From: Dehalococcoidia bacterium
GTDB taxonomy: Bacteria > Chloroflexota > Dehalococcoidia > UBA2979
Length of the DNA stretch: 64,000 bases
Direction of reading: 5' to 3'
Assembly: GCA_965219085.1 (NCBI GenBank)
Contig: OZ244720.1
Coordinates: forward strand, 2,592,001 to 2,656,000
Positions within the stretch are counted from its first letter, which is position 1, and the number at the start of each line of letters is the position of its first letter. The position numbers and the translations under genes are program-made. Of this stretch, positions 7,314 to 50,042 are shown in pieces. The notes under the pieces were generated by a model, which was given only the letters and a program-made list of their open reading frames with translations, was not told the DNA's origin and made no database searches.

Positions 7314-9266
7314 TCACCCCGTGGCGAGGAAGTGCGGGCGACGGCGTTCGGGTGCAGCCGGAGCCGGCAACCGCCAGGCTGCACCGAGGGGACCGTCGAA
7401 GCCAATCGACTCGACGGTGGCGCTCGCCAGCGGCGCCTCGGGCATGTCCGAGGCGGTGCGCAGGAAGGCCTCCTCCGCGTGCTCCGTCTCGAACACGAAC
7501 AACACCATGGGCGGCCGTCCCTCGTGGTCGAGCCGCGCCCGTCCGCTCGCGAAGTAGCGGCGGTACGAAGCCAGCCGCTCGGGCAGCCGCTTCGGCGTCG
7601 TCGCCCGCCGTTCGTACTCGAGCAGGTACCACGTCCACTCATCCTTGTAGCCGAGCTGGAACGAGGCGTCGGGATGGATCACGTAGCCCGTGTCGCGATG
7701 CGGGTAGGCGATCTGCGAGCGGTGCGTGGGCAGCAGGTCCAGCAACTTATGGTCGCGGGAGGAGGCGGCGTCGAGGGCGAGCAGCGAGACGAGCTCCGCC
7801 AGCCCCCGCTGGTGCTCGCCCTGCGAGGCGAGGGCGCGCAGCGCGCTCCCGATGTAGATGCAGCCGTCGCGCTGCGGCGTCCAGCGGTCGAGGACCGGTC
7901 CCACGGCCGCCCGGTCGCGCCGCGCGAGGGCGCTCAGGCCCTCGTCCGTGAGCACCAGCGCGTCCCCGTCGCTGCGCACGAGACCGCGCCTGCGCAGCGG
8001 GCGCAGCACCTGGTTCACGCGCCGCGCGCTCACCCCGCCCATGAGGTTGGCGAGTTGCTCCGTCGTGCAGAGCGGCCAAGCCGCGAGCAGGTCCAGCGCC
8101 TGTTTCCCGGCGGCCGTCAGCTGCAGCGCGAGCGCGTCCCCGAACGCATCGTCGCCGCTGGGCGGTGTCGCCCGCACGCCGCCGGCGGAGAGCCAGGCCC
8201 AGTGTCGTTTCGGCAGCACCCCGTGCACGGGGTGCTCCGCCTCGCGTCCGGCCAGGTCGACCAGCCATGCCAGGCTCGTGTCGGGGGCGATGACCGGTGT
8301 GTTCCCGCGACCGTAGCGAGCCGGTTGCCAGACGCGCGCCCACGCGCCGCCGCCGACCACGGCGCCCAGCGTCGCCACCGCGCTGTGGTGGAAGCCCGAG
8401 GGCTCCCCCAACGCGCGCACGGCGCGGCGCGTGTCCTGGTCGGAGTCGGTCGCGACCAGCGTGACGTGAGGAAGCTCCTGCACGCCCATCCGCTCGATCG
8501 TGCGGATGCGGTAGCGCAGGCTGGCGGCGCTCAGGTGCGGCCCCTGCCGCACGACGCCCAGCGTGCGGCCCCCGGAGAGCGTGACGAGCGCGTCGTACGG
8601 CCCCCGGCGGCAGTGCTCGACGCGCACGGGGTCCTGCTCGGGGTCGGCGTCTGCGATCATCGCGGCCAGCTCGTAGACGAGCGCCACGCCGTCGAGGCGC
8701 TCGGCGAGCAGCCGCAACCACTGGCGGGAGACGGGATAGCGGCGCAGCAGGTCGTCGTCGCCAAGGGCCGCGATGCCCGCCGGGGTCGGGACGTAGCGCC
8801 GCAGCGGACGGCCGCTCAGCATCGCCAGGCGGTGCGGATGCGCCTCGGTCAGGCCCAGCCTGCGCAGCTTCGCCAGTCGCTCGCGCAGCGTGGAGGCGGG
8901 CACGCGCTTGATGCGCGAGAGGTCCTCTACGCTCGCGAAGGGCGTCTCGCAGACGAGCAGGAGGGTCTCCGACAGGGCGCGCGTCAGGCGCGGCGTGCGG
9001 GGGCGCTCACGCGGTGCCGGGCGCGAATCGCCCCTGAGTGCGCGCCGCGCCGCAGCGAGCTTGCCGGGGGTGTCGCCGGCCTTGCTCATCACCGCGCGCG
9101 GCAGCGCGCGACCCGGCTGGCCGCGCTCGAGGAAACGCCACAGCGTGTGGCGCGAGACGCCGAACGCCTCAGCCGTGTGGGCGTGCCCGTGCTTCCACGC
9201 ATGGGCGCGGAGATAGCTCCTGATCTCGCCGGTCAGCTTGCTGTCGGGAGCGCCGCTTGTTGCCAC
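7314..9266 (-). CDS. Replic_Relax (MOBC-like, PD-(D/E)XK) relaxase with extra N-terminal HTH
   Basis: HPDASF...LLEYERRATTPKRLPERLASY motif; GTG at 9266 after GAGGA; full-length similarity to 44536..46146. Confidence 0.8.
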   Translation of the reverse strand: MATSGAPDSKLTGEIRSYLRAHAWKHGHAHTAEAFGVSRHTLWRFLERGQPGRALPRAVMSKAGDTPGKLAAARRALRGDSRPAPRERPRTPRLTRALSETLLLVCETPFASVEDLSRIKRVPASTLRERLAKLRRLGLTEAHPHRLAMLSGRPLRRYVPTPAGIAALGDDDLLRRYPVSRQWLRLLAERLDGVALVYELAAMIADADPEQDPVRVEHCRRGPYDALVTLSGGRTLGVVRQGPHLSAASLRYRIRTIERMGVQELPHVTLVATDSDQDTRRAVRALGEPSGFHHSAVATLGAVVGGGAWARVWQPARYGRGNTPVIAPDTSLAWLVDLAGREAEHPVHGVLPKRHWAWLSAGGVRATPPSGDDAFGDALALQLTAAGKQALDLLAAWPLCTTEQLANLMGGVSARRVNQVLRPLRRRGLVRSDGDALVLTDEGLSALARRDRAAVGPVLDRWTPQRDGCIYIGSALRALASQGEHQRGLAELVSLLALDAASSRDHKLLDLLPTHRSQIAYPHRDTGYVIHPDASFQLGYKDEWTWYLLEYERRATTPKRLPERLASYRRYFASGRARLDHEGRPPMVLFVFETEHAEEAFLRTASDMPEAPLASATVESIGFDGPLGAAWRLPAPAAPERRRPHFLATG

Positions 9267-9399
9267 TCGCTGTCCTCTTCGATGGCCGCGGAAGCGTTGC
9301 AACACGTCGGGGAAGGCGCGCACGTGTTGATCCGTGGCGGGCGCGTCGGTCGCGGCGCGCAGTCCTCGTCCAGCTTGCGATCAGGACGTACGTTCGTCA

Positions 9400-9919: not shown

Positions 9920-9943
9920 GAACAAACGTACCCCCCCCCCCCC
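9920..9943 (+). promoter_or_regulatory. SOS-box-like site GAAC-AAAC-GTAC followed by a C13 homopolymer
   Basis: Read directly; lies about 250 bp upstream of the surface-protein operon. Confidence 0.45.
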
Positions 9944-29503: not shown

Positions 29504-29902
29504 CTAGAAGGGCTGATCGTCCGCGACCTCGGCGGCGGCCTGCTGGCCACCGTTGCCGTTGCCGTTGGAGCGCCCGTTGCCGTTCGAGTCGAGGAAGATG
29601 ACCTCCTGCGCGTGCACCTCGCTGCGGTGGCGGCGCTGGCCGTCCTGCGTCTCGTAGCTGTTCTGGGCGAGCGAGCCCGCGACGAAGATGCGGTTGCCCT
29701 TCTTCACGTACTCGGCGACGGCCTCGGCCTGCTTACCCCAGCAGACGACCGAGTGCCAGTCGGCGTCGGTCTCGCCGTTCTGGCGGCGGCGATCGGTCGC
29801 CAGCCTGAGCTGGCAGATCGCGGTGCCGTTCTGGCTGTACTTCAGTTCGGGGTCCGTGCCCACGCGGCCCAGCAGTTCGATGCGGTTGATCGTGCGCGAC
29901 AT
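29504..29902 (-). CDS. ssb: Single-stranded DNA-binding protein, copy 2
   Basis: INRIELLGRVGTDPELKY OB fold; acidic tail DDQPF. Confidence 0.95.
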   Translation of the reverse strand: MSRTINRIELLGRVGTDPELKYSQNGTAICQLRLATDRRRQNGETDADWHSVVCWGKQAEAVAEYVKKGNRIFVAGSLAQNSYETQDGQRRHRSEVHAQEVIFLDSNGNGRSNGNGNGGQQAAAEVADDQPF

Positions 29903-41932: not shown

Positions 41933-44539
41933 ATGCGATTCAATCCATTCAAGACCATCCCCAATCGCGAGCCCGTGCTGCTGGCGGTGACGCCGCCGCG
42001 CACGGGCGAGCGCACGCTGCTCGGCGTCGAGAACCTGCTCGGCTCGATCGCCGTGCCCGAGCCCTTTTCGCTCGAACTCGCGGGCGGCGCCGACGGCGTC
42101 ACCCTGCTGGCGCGCTGCCTCGGCGAGCAGGTCGTGCGCGGCCAGATCGCCGCCCACTATCCCCAGGCACGCATCCACCAGCTCCAGCCCGAAGAGGATC
42201 CGCTCCGGCTCCGCGGGGGCGAGCAGGCCTGGAGCATGACCCTGCGCCCGAGCGGACCCGAGTACCTGCCCCTGCGCCTCTTCCGCGACGACGACCTGCT
42301 CGACGCGGGCTCCGACCCGATCCTCGCCCTGCTCGGCGCGCTCTCCGACCTCGAGGAGGACGAGCGCGTCGTCGCGCGGCTGCGGCTGCGCTCGCTCGGT
42401 CCCGACTGGTCGCGGCAGCACCAGGTCAGGGCGCACGAGCGGCCCCAGCCGGAGCGGACCGACTCCTACCAGATCAGCGAGTCGCGCCGCCACCGCGTCG
42501 AGATCGCGGGGGTGGCCGTCCTCGGTGCCGCCGTCGCCGGCGCTGCCCAGGGCTACCGCTGGTGGCAGGCGGGCGAGCAGTGGAAGACGGTCGCGCTCGG
42601 GGCGGGCATCGCCCTCACGCTCGGTGTGGCCGGCTGGGCCTGGGCGCGCTGGCAGCGCGCCCGCAACCGCGTCGTCGACCCCCTCCTGGTCAAGGAGAAG
42701 GTCTCGCGCATCGCCTTCGAGGCGGAGATCGAGGCCGTCGCCGTGCTGCCCGCCGGCGGCACCGAGGAGCGCGCGCGCGACCTGCTCGAGCCGGTGGCGG
42801 CCGCCTACCGCCACTACGACCACCCCGCGGGCGCGCGCCTGCAGGCGGGCGAGGTGCAGCCGCTGATCCCGGACCCGGCGGCGCTGCATCCCTCCCCGCC
42901 CGGCCTCTTCCGGGGGCGCAGCGTGCTCGGCGTGCGCGAGGCGGCGGCGCTCTGGCATCCGCCCGGCGCCGGGGACGAGACGCCGCTCGTCTCCCGTTCC
43001 GGGGCGAAGGTGCTGCTCCCCACGGCGCGCAGCGTCAGGGGCGGGGCGCTCGTCGGCGAGACCACGGCGGGGAGCCCCCGCGAGATCCATTTCCCCGACG
43101 ACCTGCTGCGCCGCCATCACCTCTACGTGGCGCGCACGCGCATGGGCAAGTCGACGCTCATGCAGCACCTCGTTACCCACAGGCTGCGGGAGAAGGCGGC
43201 AGGGGTCGGCGGCGACGCGATCGTCGTCGTCGACCCCCACGCCGACCTCGTCGCCGGCATCCTCGAGCACGTCCCCGAGTCCCTGGTTGGCTCCGTGCGC
43301 CTCGTCGACCTCGCGGGCAGCGGCGGCTACCCCGGCATCAACCTGCTCGACACGCACGTCTTCGCCGACCGCGACCGCACCGCCGACTCGGTCGTGCGCG
43401 TCGCGCGGGGGCTCTGGGAGCAGTGGGGGCCGCGCATGCAGTCGATCCTCGAGCAGACGGTGAAGACGCTGCACGAAGCTAACGCCCACCCCGACACGGC
43501 GGCCGAGGAGCAGAGCACCATCCTCGATGGGCTGCGCCTCCTGTCCGACGACGGCTTCCGCAGCCACGTCCTGGAGCGGGTCTCCGACCCCTTCCTGCTC
43601 GACTGGTGGGCGCGAGACTTCGGTGGCTGGCGGCGCGAGTACCGCGCCGAGGCGCTGGCGCCGGTCCAGACGCGCCTCTCCTACTACGCCTCCTCGAAGC
43701 GGGCGCGAGCGATCCTCGGCCAGGCGCGGTCCACCATCGACCTGCGCCGCACCATCCTCGACGGGGGCGTGCTGCTCGTCTCCACCGCGCAGGGCACCGC
43801 CGGGCGCGACGTCGCCGCGCTCGTGGGCGCGTCGATCCTCAACCTCGTCGATGCCGTCATCCGCGAGCAGGGCGAGCTGCCCCCGGAGCGCAGGCGCGGC
43901 GCGCTCGTCGTCGTCGACGAGATGCAGTCGATGCCGGGCGTCGACTACGAGTCGATGCTCTCGGAGCTGGGCAAGTTCGGGGCCAGCTTCGTGCTCGCCA
44001 CGCAGAGCCTCGCCAAGCTCGCCGATCTCTCACCGACGATGCGCGACACGCTGCTCGCCAACGTGGGCTGTCTCGCCATCTTCCAGGTGGCCGGCTCCGA
44101 CGCGCGCCAGCTCGTCTGGGAGCTCGACCGCGACCGCGTCTCCGAGGAGGATGTCGTCTCCCTGCCCGCGCACCACTGCTACGTGCGCGCGACCGTGGGA
44201 ACGCAGCGCATGCCCGCCTTCTCCATGGAAGTGCGCAAGCCCGACGGAGGCGACCCGGGGCGGGCCTCCCGCATCCGCGCGGACGCGGCGTCCTACCTGC
44301 TGACGGAGGAGGAGATCGCCGCCCGCCAGGCGGAGGGCCGCCGTCGCGTGGAGCAGTGGCGCGAGGCCGGCGAGGCGCTTCGCAACGGCGATGGTTCCGG
44401 GCCGGACGCGGACGCTGCTCCGGGGGAGGGCTCCGATCCGGGCACGGGCGACACCTCCGGGGAAGCAGAGCGCGGGAAGCAGTCGCGCAGCAAGCACTTC
44501 CAGCCGCCCGGCCGCAACTCCGGGAAGGCTGAGCAGTGA
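41933..44539 (+). CDS. virD4: Type IV coupling protein (VirD4/TraD-like)
   Basis: Two TM helices, ARTRMGKST, VDPHADL, VVDEMQ, LATQSL. Confidence 0.85.
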   Translation: MRFNPFKTIPNREPVLLAVTPPRTGERTLLGVENLLGSIAVPEPFSLELAGGADGVTLLARCLGEQVVRGQIAAHYPQARIHQLQPEEDPLRLRGGEQAWSMTLRPSGPEYLPLRLFRDDDLLDAGSDPILALLGALSDLEEDERVVARLRLRSLGPDWSRQHQVRAHERPQPERTDSYQISESRRHRVEIAGVAVLGAAVAGAAQGYRWWQAGEQWKTVALGAGIALTLGVAGWAWARWQRARNRVVDPLLVKEKVSRIAFEAEIEAVAVLPAGGTEERARDLLEPVAAAYRHYDHPAGARLQAGEVQPLIPDPAALHPSPPGLFRGRSVLGVREAAALWHPPGAGDETPLVSRSGAKVLLPTARSVRGGALVGETTAGSPREIHFPDDLLRRHHLYVARTRMGKSTLMQHLVTHRLREKAAGVGGDAIVVVDPHADLVAGILEHVPESLVGSVRLVDLAGSGGYPGINLLDTHVFADRDRTADSVVRVARGLWEQWGPRMQSILEQTVKTLHEANAHPDTAAEEQSTILDGLRLLSDDGFRSHVLERVSDPFLLDWWARDFGGWRREYRAEALAPVQTRLSYYASSKRARAILGQARSTIDLRRTILDGGVLLVSTAQGTAGRDVAALVGASILNLVDAVIREQGELPPERRRGALVVVDEMQSMPGVDYESMLSELGKFGASFVLATQSLAKLADLSPTMRDTLLANVGCLAIFQVAGSDARQLVWELDRDRVSEEDVVSLPAHHCYVRATVGTQRMPAFSMEVRKPDGGDPGRASRIRADAASYLLTEEEIAARQAEGRRRVEQWREAGEALRNGDGSGPDADAAPGEGSDPGTGDTSGEAERGKQSRSKHFQPPGRNSGKAEQ

Positions 44540-46146
44540 GGCCGGAGCGCGACCTGCTGCGCCTGCTTGCGGAGATGCCCTTCCTCGACCGGCTGGAGGC
44601 GGCCGCCGTCTCCGGTTGGTCGCGGGGCGCGGTCTACGCCGCGGTGGCCAAGCTGGAGCGTGAGGGGATGGCCGCGGCCGTCCCCCACGCCTCGGAGTTC
44701 ATCGCCCCGACGCAGCGCTACTCCCTCACGGCAGCCGGGCTGCGGCGCCTCGCGGACGCCGAGGGGACCGCCGTGGAGCAGGTGCTGCGCTCGCGGCCGG
44801 TCTCGGGGCGCTCGCGGCGCATCCTGCTGGAGCGTCTCGACGGCGTGGCCGTCACCTACCGCCTCGCCTCGGCGATCGCCGACGCGGCCTGGCCGATCCG
44901 CCTGCGCTGGTACCGGGCGGCACCAATGGACGCCGCCATCGCGCTCCCCGGCGGGCGCACCCTCGCGATCGTCCGCCAGGGCCGCACGACCGAGCGCACG
45001 GCCTTCGCCAAGCGCCTCTGGCGGCTGCGCGAGGGGCCGCGCCCGGGCGCCTACCTGCTGCTTGCACCCGACGGTGTGCGCCTGCGCCGTCTCGCCCGCC
45101 TCATGGCGGAGGCGGGGACGGTCAGCTTCCTCGCGCTGGAGCGCGACGCGGCCGCGGCGCGTGCGGGCGCGCGCATCTGGCGCACTGCGTCCGGGTCGCC
45201 CGCGCTCTCGCTGGACGAAGCGCTCGCCCTCGTCGGGCCGGGCGGCGCCTGGCCCGGCGAGCAGCCGTTGGCGCGGGTCGCGTTGCCTTCCCCGCTGCCG
45301 GACACGGAGCACGGCGCGCTCCCGCTCTGGATGCTCCCCTCCGAGCTGACGCCCGTGGACAAGCGCGCCCTCGGCCTGCTCGCCGACTGGTCCTGGCTTG
45401 CCCGCGAGCCGCTGGGCGCGCTCCTCGGCGTGGGGCGCACGCGGCTGTCGGGCGTGCTCGGGCGGCTGGACGGGCTCGGCCTCGTCCGCGCCCCGCGCGA
45501 CGGCCGGCTCGCGCTCTCGGACCGCGGGCTGGCGCTGCTCGCGCGCCGCGACCGCGCCTCGGAGGGGGACGCGAGGCGGCGCTGGAGCGCGGCGCCGCTG
45601 GACCCGCGGGCGCCGCTCGCCTGGCGCAACGTCTCCGGCAGGCGCAGCCGCCAGCTCCTTCGCAACCTCGACCACACCGCGGCCGTGCACGGCTTCCTCG
45701 CGGCGCTGACGGCGCAGGCGCGTGAGCGCGGCTGGGAGGTGGCGCAGCTCGACCCGCCCCACCGCGCGTCGCGCTACTTCCGCCACGGCGGCGGCCTGCG
45801 CTCCGTCCACCCCGACGCCTTCGGTGTCCTCCGCCGCGGCGATGCCACACGGGCCTTCTTCCTCGAGTGGGAGCGCCGCGCCGTGCGGCCCTCCACGATG
45901 GCCGCCCGCCTCGCCCCCTACCTGCGCTACTACGCCTCGCAGCGCCCCACCGACGACCACGGCGTCCGCCCCGCCGTGCTGGTCGTCTTCGACGACGAAC
46001 TCGCCGCCCACCACTTCCTGCGCGTCGCGCGGAGGGAGCTGGACCGCGCCCGCGTCGAGTTGCCCCTGCGCGTCTCGCACCGCGCGCTCATCGAACGGGA
46101 AGGGCCGCTCGAGTGCCGCTGGCGCTCTCCCGCAGGCGGCTCCTGA
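44536..46146 (+). CDS. Replic_Relax (MOBC-like) relaxase of the ICE
   Basis: HPDAFG...FLEWERRAVRPSTMAARLAPY; GTGA-coupled to the coupling protein. Confidence 0.82.
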   Translation: MRPERDLLRLLAEMPFLDRLEAAAVSGWSRGAVYAAVAKLEREGMAAAVPHASEFIAPTQRYSLTAAGLRRLADAEGTAVEQVLRSRPVSGRSRRILLERLDGVAVTYRLASAIADAAWPIRLRWYRAAPMDAAIALPGGRTLAIVRQGRTTERTAFAKRLWRLREGPRPGAYLLLAPDGVRLRRLARLMAEAGTVSFLALERDAAAARAGARIWRTASGSPALSLDEALALVGPGGAWPGEQPLARVALPSPLPDTEHGALPLWMLPSELTPVDKRALGLLADWSWLAREPLGALLGVGRTRLSGVLGRLDGLGLVRAPRDGRLALSDRGLALLARRDRASEGDARRRWSAAPLDPRAPLAWRNVSGRRSRQLLRNLDHTAAVHGFLAALTAQARERGWEVAQLDPPHRASRYFRHGGGLRSVHPDAFGVLRRGDATRAFFLEWERRAVRPSTMAARLAPYLRYYASQRPTDDHGVRPAVLVVFDDELAAHHFLRVARRELDRARVELPLRVSHRALIEREGPLECRWRSPAGGS

Positions 46147-46271
46147 CCACGCCCAGAGCGTTCCCGCTCGCCACCTGGCCGCACGGATCGACCGCCGCGC
46201 GCGGGGCCTCGGCGCACGCGGCCGGGCGGCCGGCGGCAGGGGGTTACGCTAGACGGGGCAGTGCATGGGTA

Positions 46272-46290
46272 AGAACTGGCGTTCTATGAT
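46272..46290 (+). promoter_or_regulatory. Perfect SOS-box-like palindrome AGAAC-TGGC-GTTCT overlapping a TATGAT -10 element
   Basis: Read directly, just upstream of the XRE gene. Confidence 0.7.
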
Positions 46291-46322
46291 GGATCGGGCG
46301 GGGCCGGCCGAGGAGCGCAGAC

Positions 46323-46691
46323 ATGACCGTCGACCACGGCTACCGCTGGAAGGAGTTCGGCGCCCGCATCCGCGCGGCCCGCGAGCGCGCCGGCTTCACG
46401 CAGAAGCGCCTCGGCGAGCTCGTCGGCGTGCGCGCGCACACCGTCTGGTGCTGGGAGGCGGGGCGGATGAAGCCCAACCACGCGAACCTCGCGGAAATCG
46501 CCTACCAGTGCGCGACGAGCGTGGCGCTGCTTGAGGGACGCGACGTGGTCGAGGCGGAGTTGCTGAGAGAAGCCGAAGTCTTGTTCCGCGACGCCGTCGC
46601 CGGCCTCCCCATGGAGGACATCGAGTCGATCCGCAACTACATCCGCTTCGTCAAGTCGGAGCGGCGCAGGCAACGCCGCGCCGGGAGCTGA
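46323..46691 (+). CDS. XRE-family transcriptional regulator
   Basis: IRAARERAGFTQKRLGELVGV...WEAG. Confidence 0.88.
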   Translation: MTVDHGYRWKEFGARIRAARERAGFTQKRLGELVGVRAHTVWCWEAGRMKPNHANLAEIAYQCATSVALLEGRDVVEAELLREAEVLFRDAVAGLPMEDIESIRNYIRFVKSERRRQRRAGS

Positions 46692-46722
46692 ACCGGGCGC
46701 AGCGGCGCGCGAGGGGCTGCCG

Positions 46723-47013
46723 CTACGCCGCCCGCCCGTCAGCCGCGGGCGGCGATTCCTCCTCCGAAGCCGATCCGGCGATGGCATGTCCCGCCGCCGT
46801 GAGGGTCACCGCGCGCGCCAGGCGGGGCGCACGCACGATCAGGCCCGCGCGCTCGCACGCGTCCAGCCAGTGCGCCACGTTGGAGGTGGAGGACAGCCCG
46901 GTCGCCGTCCTCAACTCGCGCACGCTCGGCGCATAGCCGTGCCTGGCCCGGTAGCGGGCGATCGCCCCGACCACCGCGCGCATCCGCTCCCGTCGCCGCC
47001 TCGAGGCGCTCAC
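46723..47013 (-). CDS. LexA N-terminal DNA-binding domain-only protein
   Basis: HGYAPSVREL...GLSSTSNVAHWL...GLIVR...RAV; no peptidase domain; GTGA overlap with upstream gene. Confidence 0.8.
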   Translation of the reverse strand: MSASRRRRERMRAVVGAIARYRARHGYAPSVRELRTATGLSSTSNVAHWLDACERAGLIVRAPRLARAVTLTAAGHAIAGSASEEESPPAADGRAA

Positions 47014-47393
47014 AGGGCGGCGCCCTTCGCGAGCGGCAGTGCCGCTCCCTGCCCGAACTCGCCGGGCGCGCCGCCGCGTACTGCCAGCTCCCACGAGCGG
47101 ACCAGACTCTCCGCTGGCGCCCCGGCCTCGTCGACGAGTAGCGCCGCGCCTGGCAGCAGGCAGGGCAGCAGGTTCCGTTCGAGGGCGAAGACGACCAGCG
47201 CGTAGAGATGGCCGGAATCGGGCGTCGTCCCGTTCCTCCAGCGCCGCAGCATGCGCGTGTCGACGCGCAGCGCGCGCGCCAGTCCCCGCCAGCTCAGCCC
47301 GGCCTCCCGCCGCAGGCGGTCGAGGCGCTCGGGGAAGTCCGGCGGAAAGCGTGACGGCTCAACGTGGTAGACGTGCTGCTGGCGGCGTCCCAT
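47010..47393 (-). CDS. XRE-like HTH protein
   Basis: DFPERLDRLRREAGLSWRGLARAL...RRWRNG. Confidence 0.8.
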   Translation of the reverse strand: MGRRQQHVYHVEPSRFPPDFPERLDRLRREAGLSWRGLARALRVDTRMLRRWRNGTTPDSGHLYALVVFALERNLLPCLLPGAALLVDEAGAPAESLVRSWELAVRGGAPGEFGQGAALPLAKGAAL

Positions 47394-47695
47394 CAGCGCC
47401 TCCGCTCCGGGCGCACGACGATCAGCTCCTCGCCCAGCAGTGCGCCCAGGCCCCCGGGCACCCGCGTCGCGAGCCGCACCAGCGAGAGCATCGCCCCGCC
47501 GCCGGGCGAGGCGCCCTGCCGCCAGCGCCAGAGCTGGCGGGGGTCCACGCCCAGGCAGACCGCCATCCGCTCCCAGGGCAGCCCGGTCAGTTCCTTGATC
47601 GCCACGAGCCGCGCCGCGAAGTCCTCGGGCAGGAGCGCCACGCCGGGCAGGAAGGCCGTCTCGGGGGCCGTCGGCGCCCTACTCATCGGGCTCAT
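47393..47695 (-). CDS. XRE-like HTH protein (start uncertain)
   Basis: DFAARLVAIKELTGLPWERMAVCLGV...WRWRQG; similar to neighbour. Confidence 0.78.
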   Translation of the reverse strand: MSPMSRAPTAPETAFLPGVALLPEDFAARLVAIKELTGLPWERMAVCLGVDPRQLWRWRQGASPGGGAMLSLVRLATRVPGGLGALLGEELIVVRPERRR

Positions 47696-47942
47696 CCTCG
47701 TCGGACTCATCGGGGTGCACCACGTAGAAGAGATCGTCGAAGCGCGCGTGCAGCACGCGCAGCATGCTCTCGCGCAGCCCGGCGGAGGCGCGCCGGCGCC
47801 CGTTCAGCACCAGCGAGATGTAGCCCGAGGAGCGGCCGACCGCTCGCGCGAAGCCGTTCTGCGTCAGGTTGAGGCGCACCATTCGCTCCCAGACGGCCTC
47901 GGCCCTGACCTCGACCGTGGGGCGGGCGACTCTACTCGGCAT
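47679..47942 (-). CDS. Cro/XRE-like HTH protein
   Basis: LTQNGFARAVGRSSGYISLVLNG...FDDLF. Confidence 0.8.
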   Translation of the reverse strand: MPSRVARPTVEVRAEAVWERMVRLNLTQNGFARAVGRSSGYISLVLNGRRRASAGLRESMLRVLHARFDDLFYVVHPDESDEDEPDE

Positions 47943-48138
47943 GCTCGCCCTCCCCGGCGGCCGCATCGCGGTCCGCTTCGTCGGACGGAAACGCGCCGTT
48001 GGGCCCCGTGCCGCCGCGGGCGGTCGAGGCGAGGTGGGCGCGCACGATCAGCCGCGCGAGGGCGCGCAGGCCGCGCAGCCGCTGCTCGTCCTGCTCCTTG
48101 GTGAGTTGCCGGGGGGTCGTCGTCCGGGGGGTTCGCAT
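47932..48138 (-). CDS. Small helical protein divergent from integrase (possible directionality factor)
   Basis: LTKEQDEQRLRGLRALARLI; paralog at 923..1105. Confidence 0.6.
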   Translation of the reverse strand: MRTPRTTTPRQLTKEQDEQRLRGLRALARLIVRAHLASTARGGTGPNGAFPSDEADRDAAAGEGEHAE

Positions 48139-48180
48139 CGTGGCATCCGCATGGCTGGTCTGGGGGAGTACCCCTGTGTA

Positions 48181-48308
48181 AGTACGTACGTTCTGTTATC
48201 GTGACAATAGCAGCGAGGCAGGCGCGCCGACAACGAGATCCGAGCCTAATTCGGCCCGGATCTCCTAAATCGCTTGCTGCAATGTGACAGAAGGCGAACA
48301 ACTGTACG
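48181..48308. promoter_or_regulatory. Two SOS-box-like sites in the integrase/regulator divergent promoter
   Basis: AGTAC-GTAC-GTTCT at 48181-48194; CGAAC-AACT-GTACG at 48295-48308. Confidence 0.6.
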
Positions 48309-48368
48309 CCTCGGCGCGCTACCATGTGACCAGCGAACACAGACTCCCCGCCTGTCAGGAAGCGACCG

Positions 48369-50042
48369 ATGCCCGACCAACAGCCCGATCTCAAGCCCGC
48401 CGCCCTCTACGCCCGCGTCTCCAGCGACCGCCAGGACGTCGACCTCTCCGTCTCCGCCCAGCTGCGCGCGCTCCGCGACTTCGCCGAGAAGAACAATTAC
48501 CTTGTCGTCCGCGAGTATGTCGACGAGGCCGAGAGCGGGCGCGTCGCCGACCGCCCGCAGTTCCGGCAGATGCTCGATGCGGCCGGCAGCGACGACGCGC
48601 CCTTCGAGGAGATCCTCGTCTGGAAGTTCTCGCGCTTCACCCGCAAGCGCGAGCACGCCGTCGCCTTCAAGTCGATGCTGCGCCGCCGCGGCATCCGCGT
48701 CGTCTCCATCACCGAGCACGCCGACGACTCCCCCACCGGCAAGCTCATGGAGGCGATCATCGAGAGCGTCGACGAGTTCTATTCGGAGAACCTGGCGCAG
48801 GAGGTCATGCGCGGTCTGCGCGAGTCGGCTTCACGCGGCTTCTGGGTCGCCCCGCGCGCGCCTTACGGCTACCGCAGGGTCCAGGTGCAGGACGGCCCTA
48901 GGACGCGACCGAAGCTGGAGTTGAATCCGCCCGCCGACGGCATGGTCCGCCGCATCTTCGAGATGGCTCTGCAGGACCGGAGCGTCCTCGAGATCAGCAA
49001 GACGTTCAACGCCGAGGGCATCCCCAGCCCGGCAGGCAAGCGCTGGAACAAGACGACTATCCACCAGATGCTCGCCAACGAGACCTATACGGGAACCTTG
49101 CTCTGGGGCGTCACGGCCAAAGACGGGCTCCCACCCGTGCGTGTCGAGGATGCGTTCCCCGCCATCGTCTCCCGGAAGGAGTTCCAGGAGGTCGCGGGCC
49201 TGCTGCGTGCGAAGGCGCCGGCGCAGGTACATCCGCGTCGCGCCGGGAGCCCATATCTGCTGAGCGGGCTCGTGAAGTGCCGGCGCTGCCGCCGAGCGCT
49301 CACGGCAGCCGAGGCGAAGAGCGGCAAGTACACCTACTACGTCTGCCAGTCGCTGTTGAAGCGAGGCAGCGGTACCTGCGAGACCCCGCGGCTCAACGCG
49401 CAGCACTTCGAGCGGCTGATCATCGAGCAGATTCGGGAGCACATCCTCACCGAGTCCAACATCCGCGACCTCGTGCGGCTCGTTGACGAGGAGATGGACG
49501 GCGTAGCGCGCGAGGAGCGTGCGAAACTCGAGACCACCGAGGCCGAGCTGGCCGAGGTGCGCAGCAAGATGGACCGGCTGTGGCACGCCGTCGAGACCTC
49601 CGATCTGGAGGTCAACGACATCTTGCCCCGCCTGAGGCAGCACCAGGAGCGCCAGGAGCGCCTCGAGACGGCGGCGGCGGATGCGCGCAGGGCGCTCTCG
49701 GAGCGCCGCGTGGCGCTGGACAGCGTCGAGACCATCACCGCCTTCGCTCGAGAGATGAGCGAGTTCCTGCGGACCAGTAAACTCACCGAGTCGAAGACGT
49801 TCATCCGCTCCTTTGTGAAGGAGATCGCCGTCAAGCCCGGGACGGCGACGATCCGGTACACCATCCCGACGCCGCCGGACAGCCCCATCGGTGGGGGAGA
49901 TGCTGCGGAGATCGAGTTGCCCGAGGCAGTTCGCAGTACAGTCAGCTATGGCTGCCGGGGGAGGAATCGAACCTCCATCAAGGGATCCAAAGTCCCCTGT
50001 GCTACCGTTGCACCACCCGGCACCGCTGCGGATCCAGTCTAG
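48369..50042 (+). CDS. Large serine recombinase (integrase)
   Basis: YARVSS catalytic motif, SRFTR, APYGY recombinase domain, LSGLVKCRRC zinc ribbon, coiled coil. Confidence 0.95.
   Translation: MPDQQPDLKPAALYARVSSDRQDVDLSVSAQLRALRDFAEKNNYLVVREYVDEAESGRVADRPQFRQMLDAAGSDDAPFEEILVWKFSRFTRKREHAVAFKSMLRRRGIRVVSITEHADDSPTGKLMEAIIESVDEFYSENLAQEVMRGLRESASRGFWVAPRAPYGYRRVQVQDGPRTRPKLELNPPADGMVRRIFEMALQDRSVLEISKTFNAEGIPSPAGKRWNKTTIHQMLANETYTGTLLWGVTAKDGLPPVRVEDAFPAIVSRKEFQEVAGLLRAKAPAQVHPRRAGSPYLLSGLVKCRRCRRALTAAEAKSGKYTYYVCQSLLKRGSGTCETPRLNAQHFERLIIEQIREHILTESNIRDLVRLVDEEMDGVAREERAKLETTEAELAEVRSKMDRLWHAVETSDLEVNDILPRLRQHQERQERLETAAADARRALSERRVALDSVETITAFAREMSEFLRTSKLTESKTFIRSFVKEIAVKPGTATIRYTIPTPPDSPIGGGDAAEIELPEAVRSTVSYGCRGRNRTSIKGSKVPCATVAPPGTAADPV
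49949..50022 (-). tRNA. tRNA-Gln (TTG)
   Basis: Cloverleaf, anticodon loop CTTTGGA, GGTTCGATTCC T-arm, CCA end. Confidence 0.95.

Follow-up and report, generated by a model that had tools for sequence, protein, structure and literature searches.

It is well established that mobile elements can be under SOS control. In GIL01, a temperate tectivirus of Bacillus thuringiensis, host LexA is described as repressing the promoters P1 and P3, together with gp7, via LexA boxes, and gp6, a truncated LexA homologue, as binding a palindrome of its own and activating the late promoter (Fornelos et al. 2018, PMC6182141). Here we analyzed 64,000 nt of DNA from a Dehalococcoidia bacterium (the window, by which we mean this whole stretch; positions 2,592,001-2,656,000 of a genome assembled as one contig, 3.31 Mb long and with 69.8% G+C), in which an integrative conjugative element, termed element A, spans ~9.4-50 kb. 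Element A encodes a 96-aa protein that corresponds to the winged-helix domain of LexA, here called mini-LexA, and carries sites of the type GAAC-N4-GTTC. From the sequence we propose, with a probability of about 0.6, that host LexA occupies three operators of element A and that DNA damage would derepress the regulatory operon ending in the mini-LexA gene, the XRE gene that faces this operon, and a relaxase-like gene.

The Host SOS System and Its Box

The genome contains a single full-length lexA gene, which encodes the LexA_DNA_bind and Peptidase_S24 domains in one 229-aa open frame (a 215-aa open reading frame, ORF, when read from ATG). It lies at C1:1247254-1247901 and is the sole above-threshold S24 match in the genome, the second one (17.5 bits, with a cut-off of 23.3) lying outside the window. 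Perfect copies of GAAC-N4-GTTC are located just upstream of the Pfam-verified genes for RecA, RecQ, an IMS protein (imuB-like), a DNA polymerase III alpha subunit (dnaE2-like), and RuvB, and the host lexA promoter contains GAACATACGTAC, a GTAC variant, with a second, degenerate box alongside. The assumption that GAAC-N4-GTTC is a LexA box therefore holds for this host, which by its gene content has a complete SOS system, comprising a LexA with its S24 domain, RecA, and perfect boxes at repair genes. Genome-wide we counted 39 perfect boxes, 25 of them in the 23% of the sequence left non-coding by a crude gene caller based on third-position G+C (GC3). In 5 of 5 genomes with related elements, recA also has a perfect GAAC-N4-GTTC, and the hosts of related elements therefore share the box. 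Perfect LexA boxes lie in addition upstream of a ThsB-like TIR gene, a DUF5131 gene, and a phage major-capsid gene (C1:2468337, 1242998, and 2269676, respectively), and the host SOS regulon may include defense and prophage genes.

LexA-Type Boxes in Element A

The regulatory region of element A is laid out as a Replic_Relax gene (+), a box at 46273, an XRE gene (+), and a convergent five-gene operon (-) that runs from 48138 down to 46723; the 230 nt of divergent intergenic DNA between this operon and a recombinase gene contain two further sites, at 48182 and 48296. An earlier reading of the window, hereafter the original prediction, had listed five LexA boxes, all of which exist as sequences. 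GAACTGGCGTTC (46273-46284), GAACGTACGTAC (48182-48193, minus strand), and GAACAACTGTAC (48296-48307) had each been placed one base low, at 46272, 48181, and 48295, and GAACAAACGTAC (9920-9931) and GGACGTACGTTC (9384-9395) are located exactly as claimed. A sixth match to the pattern, at 29837, was absent from that list; it falls within a coding region and scores 5.0 bits (rank 3431).

We scored these sites with a symmetrised matrix of 20 nt, for which six canonical sites at SOS genes of this genome were used (recA, recQ, imuB-like, dnaE2-like, ruvB, and lexA). No window site entered the matrix, and ranks are given among 3.3 million genome positions. The box at 48182, on the minus strand as is the operon, reached 21.9 bits (genome rank 6) and lies 44 nt upstream of the first operon gene. 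It is followed by the box at 9384, which has one mismatch and no assigned strand (19.5 bits, rank 11) and lies 61 nt upstream of the Replic_Relax gene at 7314-9323 (-), and by the box at 46273, a perfect palindrome and likewise without a strand (18.2 bits, rank 15), 39 nt upstream of the XRE gene. These three are among only 15 genome positions that score at least 18 bits (binomial P = 0.0028), and below them the scores in the window drop from 18.2 straight to 12.1 bits. When the 6,845 nt of non-coding DNA in the window were simulated with a Markov model, 4 of 1000 runs gave even one match of at least 18 bits, and in a leave-one-out analysis with six matrices the three sites ranked 5th to 25th. 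As LexA-type boxes, the sites at 48182, 9384, and 46273 are well beyond chance; those at 48296 and 9920, which the original prediction had counted with them, are at background and fall away.

The 48296 site (+; 11.4 bits, rank 190), 62 nt upstream of the recombinase gene, is unsupported as a LexA box by its rank, and its half-sites are lost in five related loci (L007, L008, L009, L011, and L016). In these only an ACAAC(T/C) core is kept, followed by a conserved TACCAT (read by eye) that is probably the recombinase -10; the conserved TACCAT block lies at 48320-48332, ~40 nt upstream of the recombinase start, and resembles a -10 of that gene. The paralogous elements B and D, described below, could not be aligned at this position. 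Other conserved blocks (GATTT..., GCTGCTA) are present in the same recombinase-operon intergenic region.

The 9920 site (+; 9.2 bits, rank 524) consists of GAACAAACGTAC and a run of 13 C, together 9920..9943, and precedes the operon of a giant surface protein. It sits in a repeat found upstream of several such operons and is kept in five of six paralogous regions, one of them with diverged flanks. Most of these repeats have an overall identity of ~90%, and the flanks are a poor fit to the matrix, which makes a LexA box here doubtful. In its core the site is similar to the second, degenerate box at lexA, and a core-only matrix lifts it to rank 37; the flanks do not fit. The C run (9931-9943) is visibly longer in the paralogs near C1:666.3, 690.8, and 704.6 kb and looks like a slipped-strand tract of the kind used in phase variation.

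Conservation of the Boxes in Related Loci

By self-BLAST, a paralogous element at C1:720-746 kb (element B) is 80-89% identical to window 24.8-50.0 kb, with the exception of the regulatory region, and two more relatives lie in the same genome, copy C (C1:837-841 kb, reversed) and copy D (C1:2555-2565 kb). The mini-LexA gene is absent from elements B and D. Copy C is a decayed regulatory module (C1:837.3-840.9 kb), in which the XRE gene is frameshifted and a deletion took the operon/recombinase promoter region together with the first recombinase codons; its mini-LexA ORF is intact, at 71% identity. Altogether, 31 related loci were found. The close relatives among them, L007-L017, come from Dehalococcoidia, Tepidiformaceae, or 'Chloroflexi' metagenome-assembled genomes, and the shared gene order is recombinase, divergent promoter, 68-aa gene, XRE, helix-turn-helix (HTH) gene, HTH_3 gene, mini-LexA, and convergent XRE.

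The operon-promoter box is present in 12 of the 12 loci for which that promoter was available (A, B, L007, L008, L009, and L011-L017). This count leaves out copy C, where the promoter is deleted, and two loci whose contigs begin only at the first ORF (L010 and L078). The sites in L064-L067 were those already seen in L008, L007, L016, and L011, and these loci were taken to be identical with them and counted once. In the alignment the left half-site GAAC is invariant (2.0 bits per position) and the right half-site reads (G/A)T(T/A)C (1.59 bits), the spacer holding 0.67 bits and the 14-nt flanks ~0.5 bits. The box of element B scores 17.2 bits, and element D has only the weak AAACATACGTAC (11.9 bits, rank 141).

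The XRE-promoter box is found in all eight loci with a convergent XRE gene (A, C, L007-L011, and L016), always as (G/A)AAC-N4-(G/T)TTC abutting TATGAT, TATGCT, TATCAT, or TACACT (L011 was read by eye). In the window, the abutting -10-like hexamer is TATGAT (46285-46290). The original prediction had the 46273 box overlapping a -10; the adjacency stands, the overlap being judged by eye only. The box at 9384 is kept in three of three orthologues of the relaxase-like gene, that is, the window copy and both close ones found (78% and 70% identity) when the genomes of 40 relatives were searched. The sites upstream of the two orthologues are GAACATATGTAC (19.1 bits) and GAACGCCTGTGC (13.2 bits), and the surrounding upstream sequence is not visibly like that of the window. 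The genome's own paralogs contain no counterpart of this box. Element B carries a perfect GAACGCTCGTTC at C1:730642 (genome rank 14), ~25 nt before its type IV secretion system (T4SS) operon; at the equivalent position of the window (~35436) there is no box.

A different architecture, type II, occurs in sister genomes, where Pfam identifies an operon of the form XRE - Peptidase_M78 (ImmA/IrrE-like) - mini-LexA (L075-L081, from genomes G016, G023, G006, G010, G019, and G018). A perfect box abutting TATACT, TAAAAT, or TATTAT is present in L079, L080 (the same place as L014), and L081. In L076 and L077 the next gene after the operon is aspartyl-protease-like.

The Mini-LexA Protein

Mini-LexA is encoded by the fifth and last gene of the operon (46723..47013, -), with a GTG start at 47013 and its stop codon at 46723-46725. 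Its only Pfam domain is LexA_DNA_bind (E 1.3e-10 on the 123-aa frame), no S24 match was obtained, and the protein is 31% identical to the N-terminal domain of host LexA (BLASTP E 5e-9). An AlphaFold model with a predicted local distance difference test score (pLDDT) of 79 shows three helices and a two-strand wing, followed by an extra helix (73-85) and a disordered tail. The closest fold in the PDB is Thermotoga maritima LexA, 3k2z (root-mean-square deviation 1.4 Å over 63 columns), with E. coli LexA next (1.1-1.3 Å); winged helices of the MntR/DtxR type also match the model, via the extra helix. Domain content and fold thus bear out the earlier description of this 96-aa protein as a LexA winged helix and nothing else. 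An Ala-Gly self-cleavage site is absent, as mini-LexA stops right after ...G-R-A-A.

The recognition helix is of a type shared with host LexA, both starting S-S-T-S, yet the two are not identical: SSTSNVAHWL in the window mini-LexA and SSTSVVDYNL in host LexA differ at 4 of 10 positions. Type II mini-LexAs have SSTSVVAY(W/R)L, with 7 or 8 of 10 positions as in host LexA. For comparison, the helix reads SSPSSVKHQL in a Bifidobacteriaceae LexA and KSPNAAEEHL in the LexA of PDB 8s7g.

At near length the family has 40 members, in which PF01726 is the sole Pfam domain save for one 160-aa member that also has an XRE-type HTH. Another 12 homologues are longer and have XRE-type HTH domains (HTH_3/HTH_31) fused to the mini-LexA domain, none of them (0/12) containing S24 (PF00717). 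Of the 19 genomes in the sample that belong to the same genus, 10 gave strong matches to mini-LexA, compared with none of the 22 others, where only the hosts' own LexA matched; this distribution, as read from sequence matches, is the patchy pattern of an accessory gene. Among metagenomic proteins (P0043-P0054), an XRE HTH is joined to a mini-LexA domain, sometimes with a second XRE module, or with two mini-LexA domains in one protein. Four further loci, from Eubacteriales, Lachnospiraceae, Paractinoplanes, and Sporolactobacillus (L019, L022, L028, and L032), have stop-to-stop frames of 67-162 aa with a LexA-type winged helix, ~40% identical to mini-LexA and with no visible S24 part. Stand-alone LexA domains, judged by such frames, seem widespread.

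Proposed Circuit and Alternative Explanations

In the circuit that we propose, host LexA would be bound in the undamaged cell at 48182 (the operon), 46273 (the facing XRE gene), and 9384 (the relaxase-like gene), and RecA-stimulated self-cleavage of LexA upon DNA damage would free all three operators. Mini-LexA would be produced only once its operon is on and would act downstream; it has no S24 domain and therefore cannot respond to RecA. The identity of the box binder, the sign of the regulation, and its induction by damage are what we infer here, and the main support for host LexA comes from the paralogs. Elements B and D have boxes without having mini-LexA, and element B has a further box before its T4SS operon, which argues that the binder is encoded outside the element.

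Several observations weigh against host LexA in this role. Every box-carrying promoter adjoins or drives a gene of the element for a LexA-type winged HTH protein, and an element protein could therefore be the real binder. A single repressor over both of two facing transcription units is an odd design for a switch. At the operon promoter, many conserved boxes have an altered right half-site (GTAC, ATTC) and score 11-15 bits in their own loci; chance level in this genome is 35 positions at 15 bits and 225 at 11 bits, and boxes with scores so often reached by chance would therefore be weak LexA sites. The near-identical L075, L076, and L077, from three genomes, have a half-site only, and no box, before XRE - M78 - mini-LexA. 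The plain pattern GAAC-N4-GTWC is not significantly enriched in the window, where it occurs 6 times compared with a mean of 2.27 in shuffled sequences (10 of 100 shuffles reach 6), and this part of the comparison with background failed to support the original prediction. Finally, a strict scan of 46100-48420 for sigma-70 promoters and terminators found none (0), so that promoter overlap was judged by eye.

As to what mini-LexA would do once made, two options are live. It may re-occupy the same boxes as a repressor insensitive to RecA, an option to which we give somewhat less than even odds, or it may have its own separate site, as GIL01 gp6 does, to which we give the same tentative weight. Since gp6 is reported to bind a different palindrome and to activate, re-repression by mini-LexA, which the original prediction had put forward along with a dampening of the host SOS response, is only one of the two.

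Among the alternative explanations, the one that survives best, even if rather unlikely, is a division of labor in which host LexA sits on the boxes and a diverged mini-LexA activates (or represses) later genes from another site. The transfer or surface operons would be candidates for such genes, and the scheme differs from re-repression only in the target of mini-LexA. GIL01 provides a precedent, as gp6, 44% identical to the host LexA domain, is described as binding a palindrome different from the LexA box and activating the late promoter (PMC6182141), and the window mini-LexA is more diverged still at 31% identity, with 4 of 10 recognition-helix positions changed. However, no second conserved palindrome was found: the GAACAA-NN-GTAC variants at 48296 and 9920, considered as a separate class of mini-LexA site, were rejected as they are not kept as boxes at conserved positions across elements, and the type II mini-LexAs share 7 or 8 of 10 recognition-helix positions with the host protein.

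Less probable again is an element-autonomous circuit, with mini-LexA as the binder of the boxes, autoregulating its operon and repressing the facing XRE gene, and with little or no part for host LexA or damage. The layout would suit such a circuit, because type I elements have boxes on both sides of the mini-LexA module and the type II box precedes an operon that ends in mini-LexA (L079, L080, and L081), a classic arrangement for negative autoregulation; many boxes are also off-consensus for the host matrix. Yet the matrix that picked out the sites was derived solely from host repair genes, and neither the 9384 relaxase box nor the boxes of its orthologues lie beside a mini-LexA gene. Elements B and D keep their boxes without a mini-LexA gene, though copies A and C could act there in trans. 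Dimerization could be provided by the fusions of mini-LexA domains to XRE domains; by itself, the N-terminal domain of LexA is not known to have a dimer interface. That the sites are promoter elements or XRE/HTH operators that merely resemble the SOS box is very improbable: four other HTH proteins are encoded beside these promoters, and the right half of the XRE box abuts a conserved -10-like hexamer that could by itself account for part of the conservation, but conservation extends to the distal GAAC half-site and to the 4-nt spacing while the spacer letters vary, and the motif is common to three unrelated promoters with ranks under a host-derived matrix far beyond chance.

The Ala-Ala Tail of Mini-LexA

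Among 24 aligned mini-LexA members, the variable acidic linker is followed by a terminal R-A-A in 16 and a terminal A-A in 18; five of eight further members from sister genomes also end A-A. The background in the genome is 71 A-A ends among 2,288 crude gene calls, 4 of them R-A-A. The three fusion proteins with a second XRE module at their end that were read all end R-A-A (3/3). We considered a GC hairpin over the last mini-LexA codons as the cause of the conserved tail and rejected it, as L010 does not preserve this hairpin and the codons for G-R-A-A differ synonymously among loci; selection at the protein level is therefore the better reading.

In host LexA, the Ala-Ala|Gly motif, by homology the scissile site, lies 22 residues past the last wing strand in ...G-K-I-A-A|G, and mini-LexA ends 25 residues past it in ...G-R-A-A. 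The host transfer-messenger RNA (tmRNA) tag ends L-A-A, and clpX is present in the genome. The new C-terminus of the E. coli LexA fragment reportedly resembles the end of the ssrA tag. For E. coli and S. aureus, LexA cleavage is described as exposing ClpX signals, the N-terminal fragment binding SOS boxes until it is removed by ClpXP (PMC6590174, PMC10584840). Mini-LexA is like this cleavage fragment in having the same domain content and in ending G-(R/K)-x(0-1)-A-A at about the same place; it differs in being gene-encoded and only 31% identical to the host domain. The tail sequence suggests that mini-LexA may be a ready-made, unstable (ClpXP-labile) LexA N-terminal fragment.

It is tempting to speculate further that mini-LexA mimics the post-cleavage fragment altogether, with quick turnover by ClpXP and binding to the same GAAC-N4-GTTC boxes giving a pulse and damping, a combination that we consider unlikely as a whole. 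Cleavage of host LexA would then have to precede the production of mini-LexA, which would re-occupy the element boxes, and possibly host SOS boxes, blind to RecA but timed by the protease. If so, the induction of the transfer genes would be shortened to a pulse, with a damped SOS response in the host. Should the Ala-Ala tail act as a degron, mini-LexA would also offer a natural experiment on what becomes of the LexA N-terminal fragment and what it does.

Gene Content of Element A

Element A is an integrative conjugative element by its T4SS genes, coupling protein, relaxase, and recombinase at a tRNA gene. According to Pfam, the T4SS set comprises TrbL/VirB6, T4SS_pilin, a VirB4-like ATPase (TraG P-loop/AAA_10), and a TrwB_AAD_bind coupling protein. 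The element also encodes two Replic_Relax proteins, a DnaG-type primase, Rad52, two single-stranded-DNA-binding proteins, a methyltransferase-helicase pair, and a giant surface protein of 4,513 aa (subtilase/cadherin/fn3). The relaxase-like Replic_Relax protein downstream of the 9384 box has 669 aa (7314..9323, -; Pfam E 1e-8). The second Replic_Relax gene (44536-46146, +) is separated from the XRE gene by a gap of 176 nt, which contains the 46273 box. The large serine recombinase (48369..50042, +) has the Pfam domains Resolvase, Recombinase, and Zn_ribbon_recom, and the 3' end of its gene runs into and overlaps a tRNA-Gln gene (49949-50022, -).

The XRE-family HTH protein facing the operon has 122 aa (46323..46691, +; Pfam HTH_31, E 1.4e-8), its gene being convergent with that of mini-LexA. 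A homologue of this protein is encoded by the first gene of the XRE - M78 - mini-LexA operons of sister genomes. Within its coding region, a box-like GAAG/GAAC-N4-(G/C/T)T(T/C)C sequence at 46575-46586 is kept in L007, L010, and L011, most simply as conserved protein sequence. The operon, entirely on the minus strand, begins with a 68-aa protein without a family (47932..48138), which is kept in related loci. It continues with a 95-aa XRE-type HTH protein (47679..47966; HTH_31, E 3.9e-6) and a 105-aa HTH protein (47393..47710; weak HTH_23 match), both in conserved synteny, and with a 127-aa HTH_3 protein (47010..47393), the stop codon of which overlaps the mini-LexA start (GTGA).

Comparison with Known Systems

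Switches of the ImmR/ImmA type, composed of an XRE repressor and an M78 metallopeptidase, are present in ICEBs1 and in many phages. The sister-genome operons resemble them in placing mini-LexA after XRE and Peptidase_M78 genes; element A differs in having XRE and no M78, the five M78 matches of the genome all lying outside the window. Genes annotated in actinophages as 'LexA-like DNA binding domain protein' (e.g., gene 13 of Mycobacterium phage Cosmo) are likewise short and match mini-LexA residues 14-72 at 37% identity, but they are known by annotation alone and are distant in sequence.

Truncated LexA homologues on mobile elements are already known, and GIL01 is the closest precedent. As far as GIL01 is described, both systems have control promoters of a mobile element with host LexA boxes and encode a LexA winged helix without the self-cleavage domain. 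They differ in that GIL01 is a phage and element A is conjugative and resides in a Dehalococcoidia-type bacterium. Unlike gp6, mini-LexA is the last cistron of an HTH operon (or of an XRE - M78 operon in sister genomes) and has an extra helix and the conserved Ala-Ala tail. A tblastn search of 50,697 phage records with mini-LexA (E <=1e-3) matched 12 records, no tectivirus among them, and by this search no close sequence kinship is detectable. In a literature search, with subscription journals not covered, we found no report of LexA boxes in Dehalococcoidia conjugative elements, and GIL01 gp6 was the sole truncated LexA homologue on a mobile element.

New here are the setting in a conjugative element of the Chloroflexota, a distinct mini-LexA family with its extra helix and Ala-Ala tail, the link to XRE and M78 genes, including fusions, and the boxes at two facing promoters. 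With this finding, SOS control of mobile DNA would come to include conjugative elements of the Chloroflexota (Dehalococcoidia), a group with scarcely any genetics, for which a concrete, testable set of operators is now provided. With mini-LexA, GIL01 gp6 would be joined by another, independent family of LexA DNA-binding domains encoded by mobile elements, and the two families suggest that mobile elements repeatedly use truncated LexA to read or rewrite the DNA-damage signal of their hosts.

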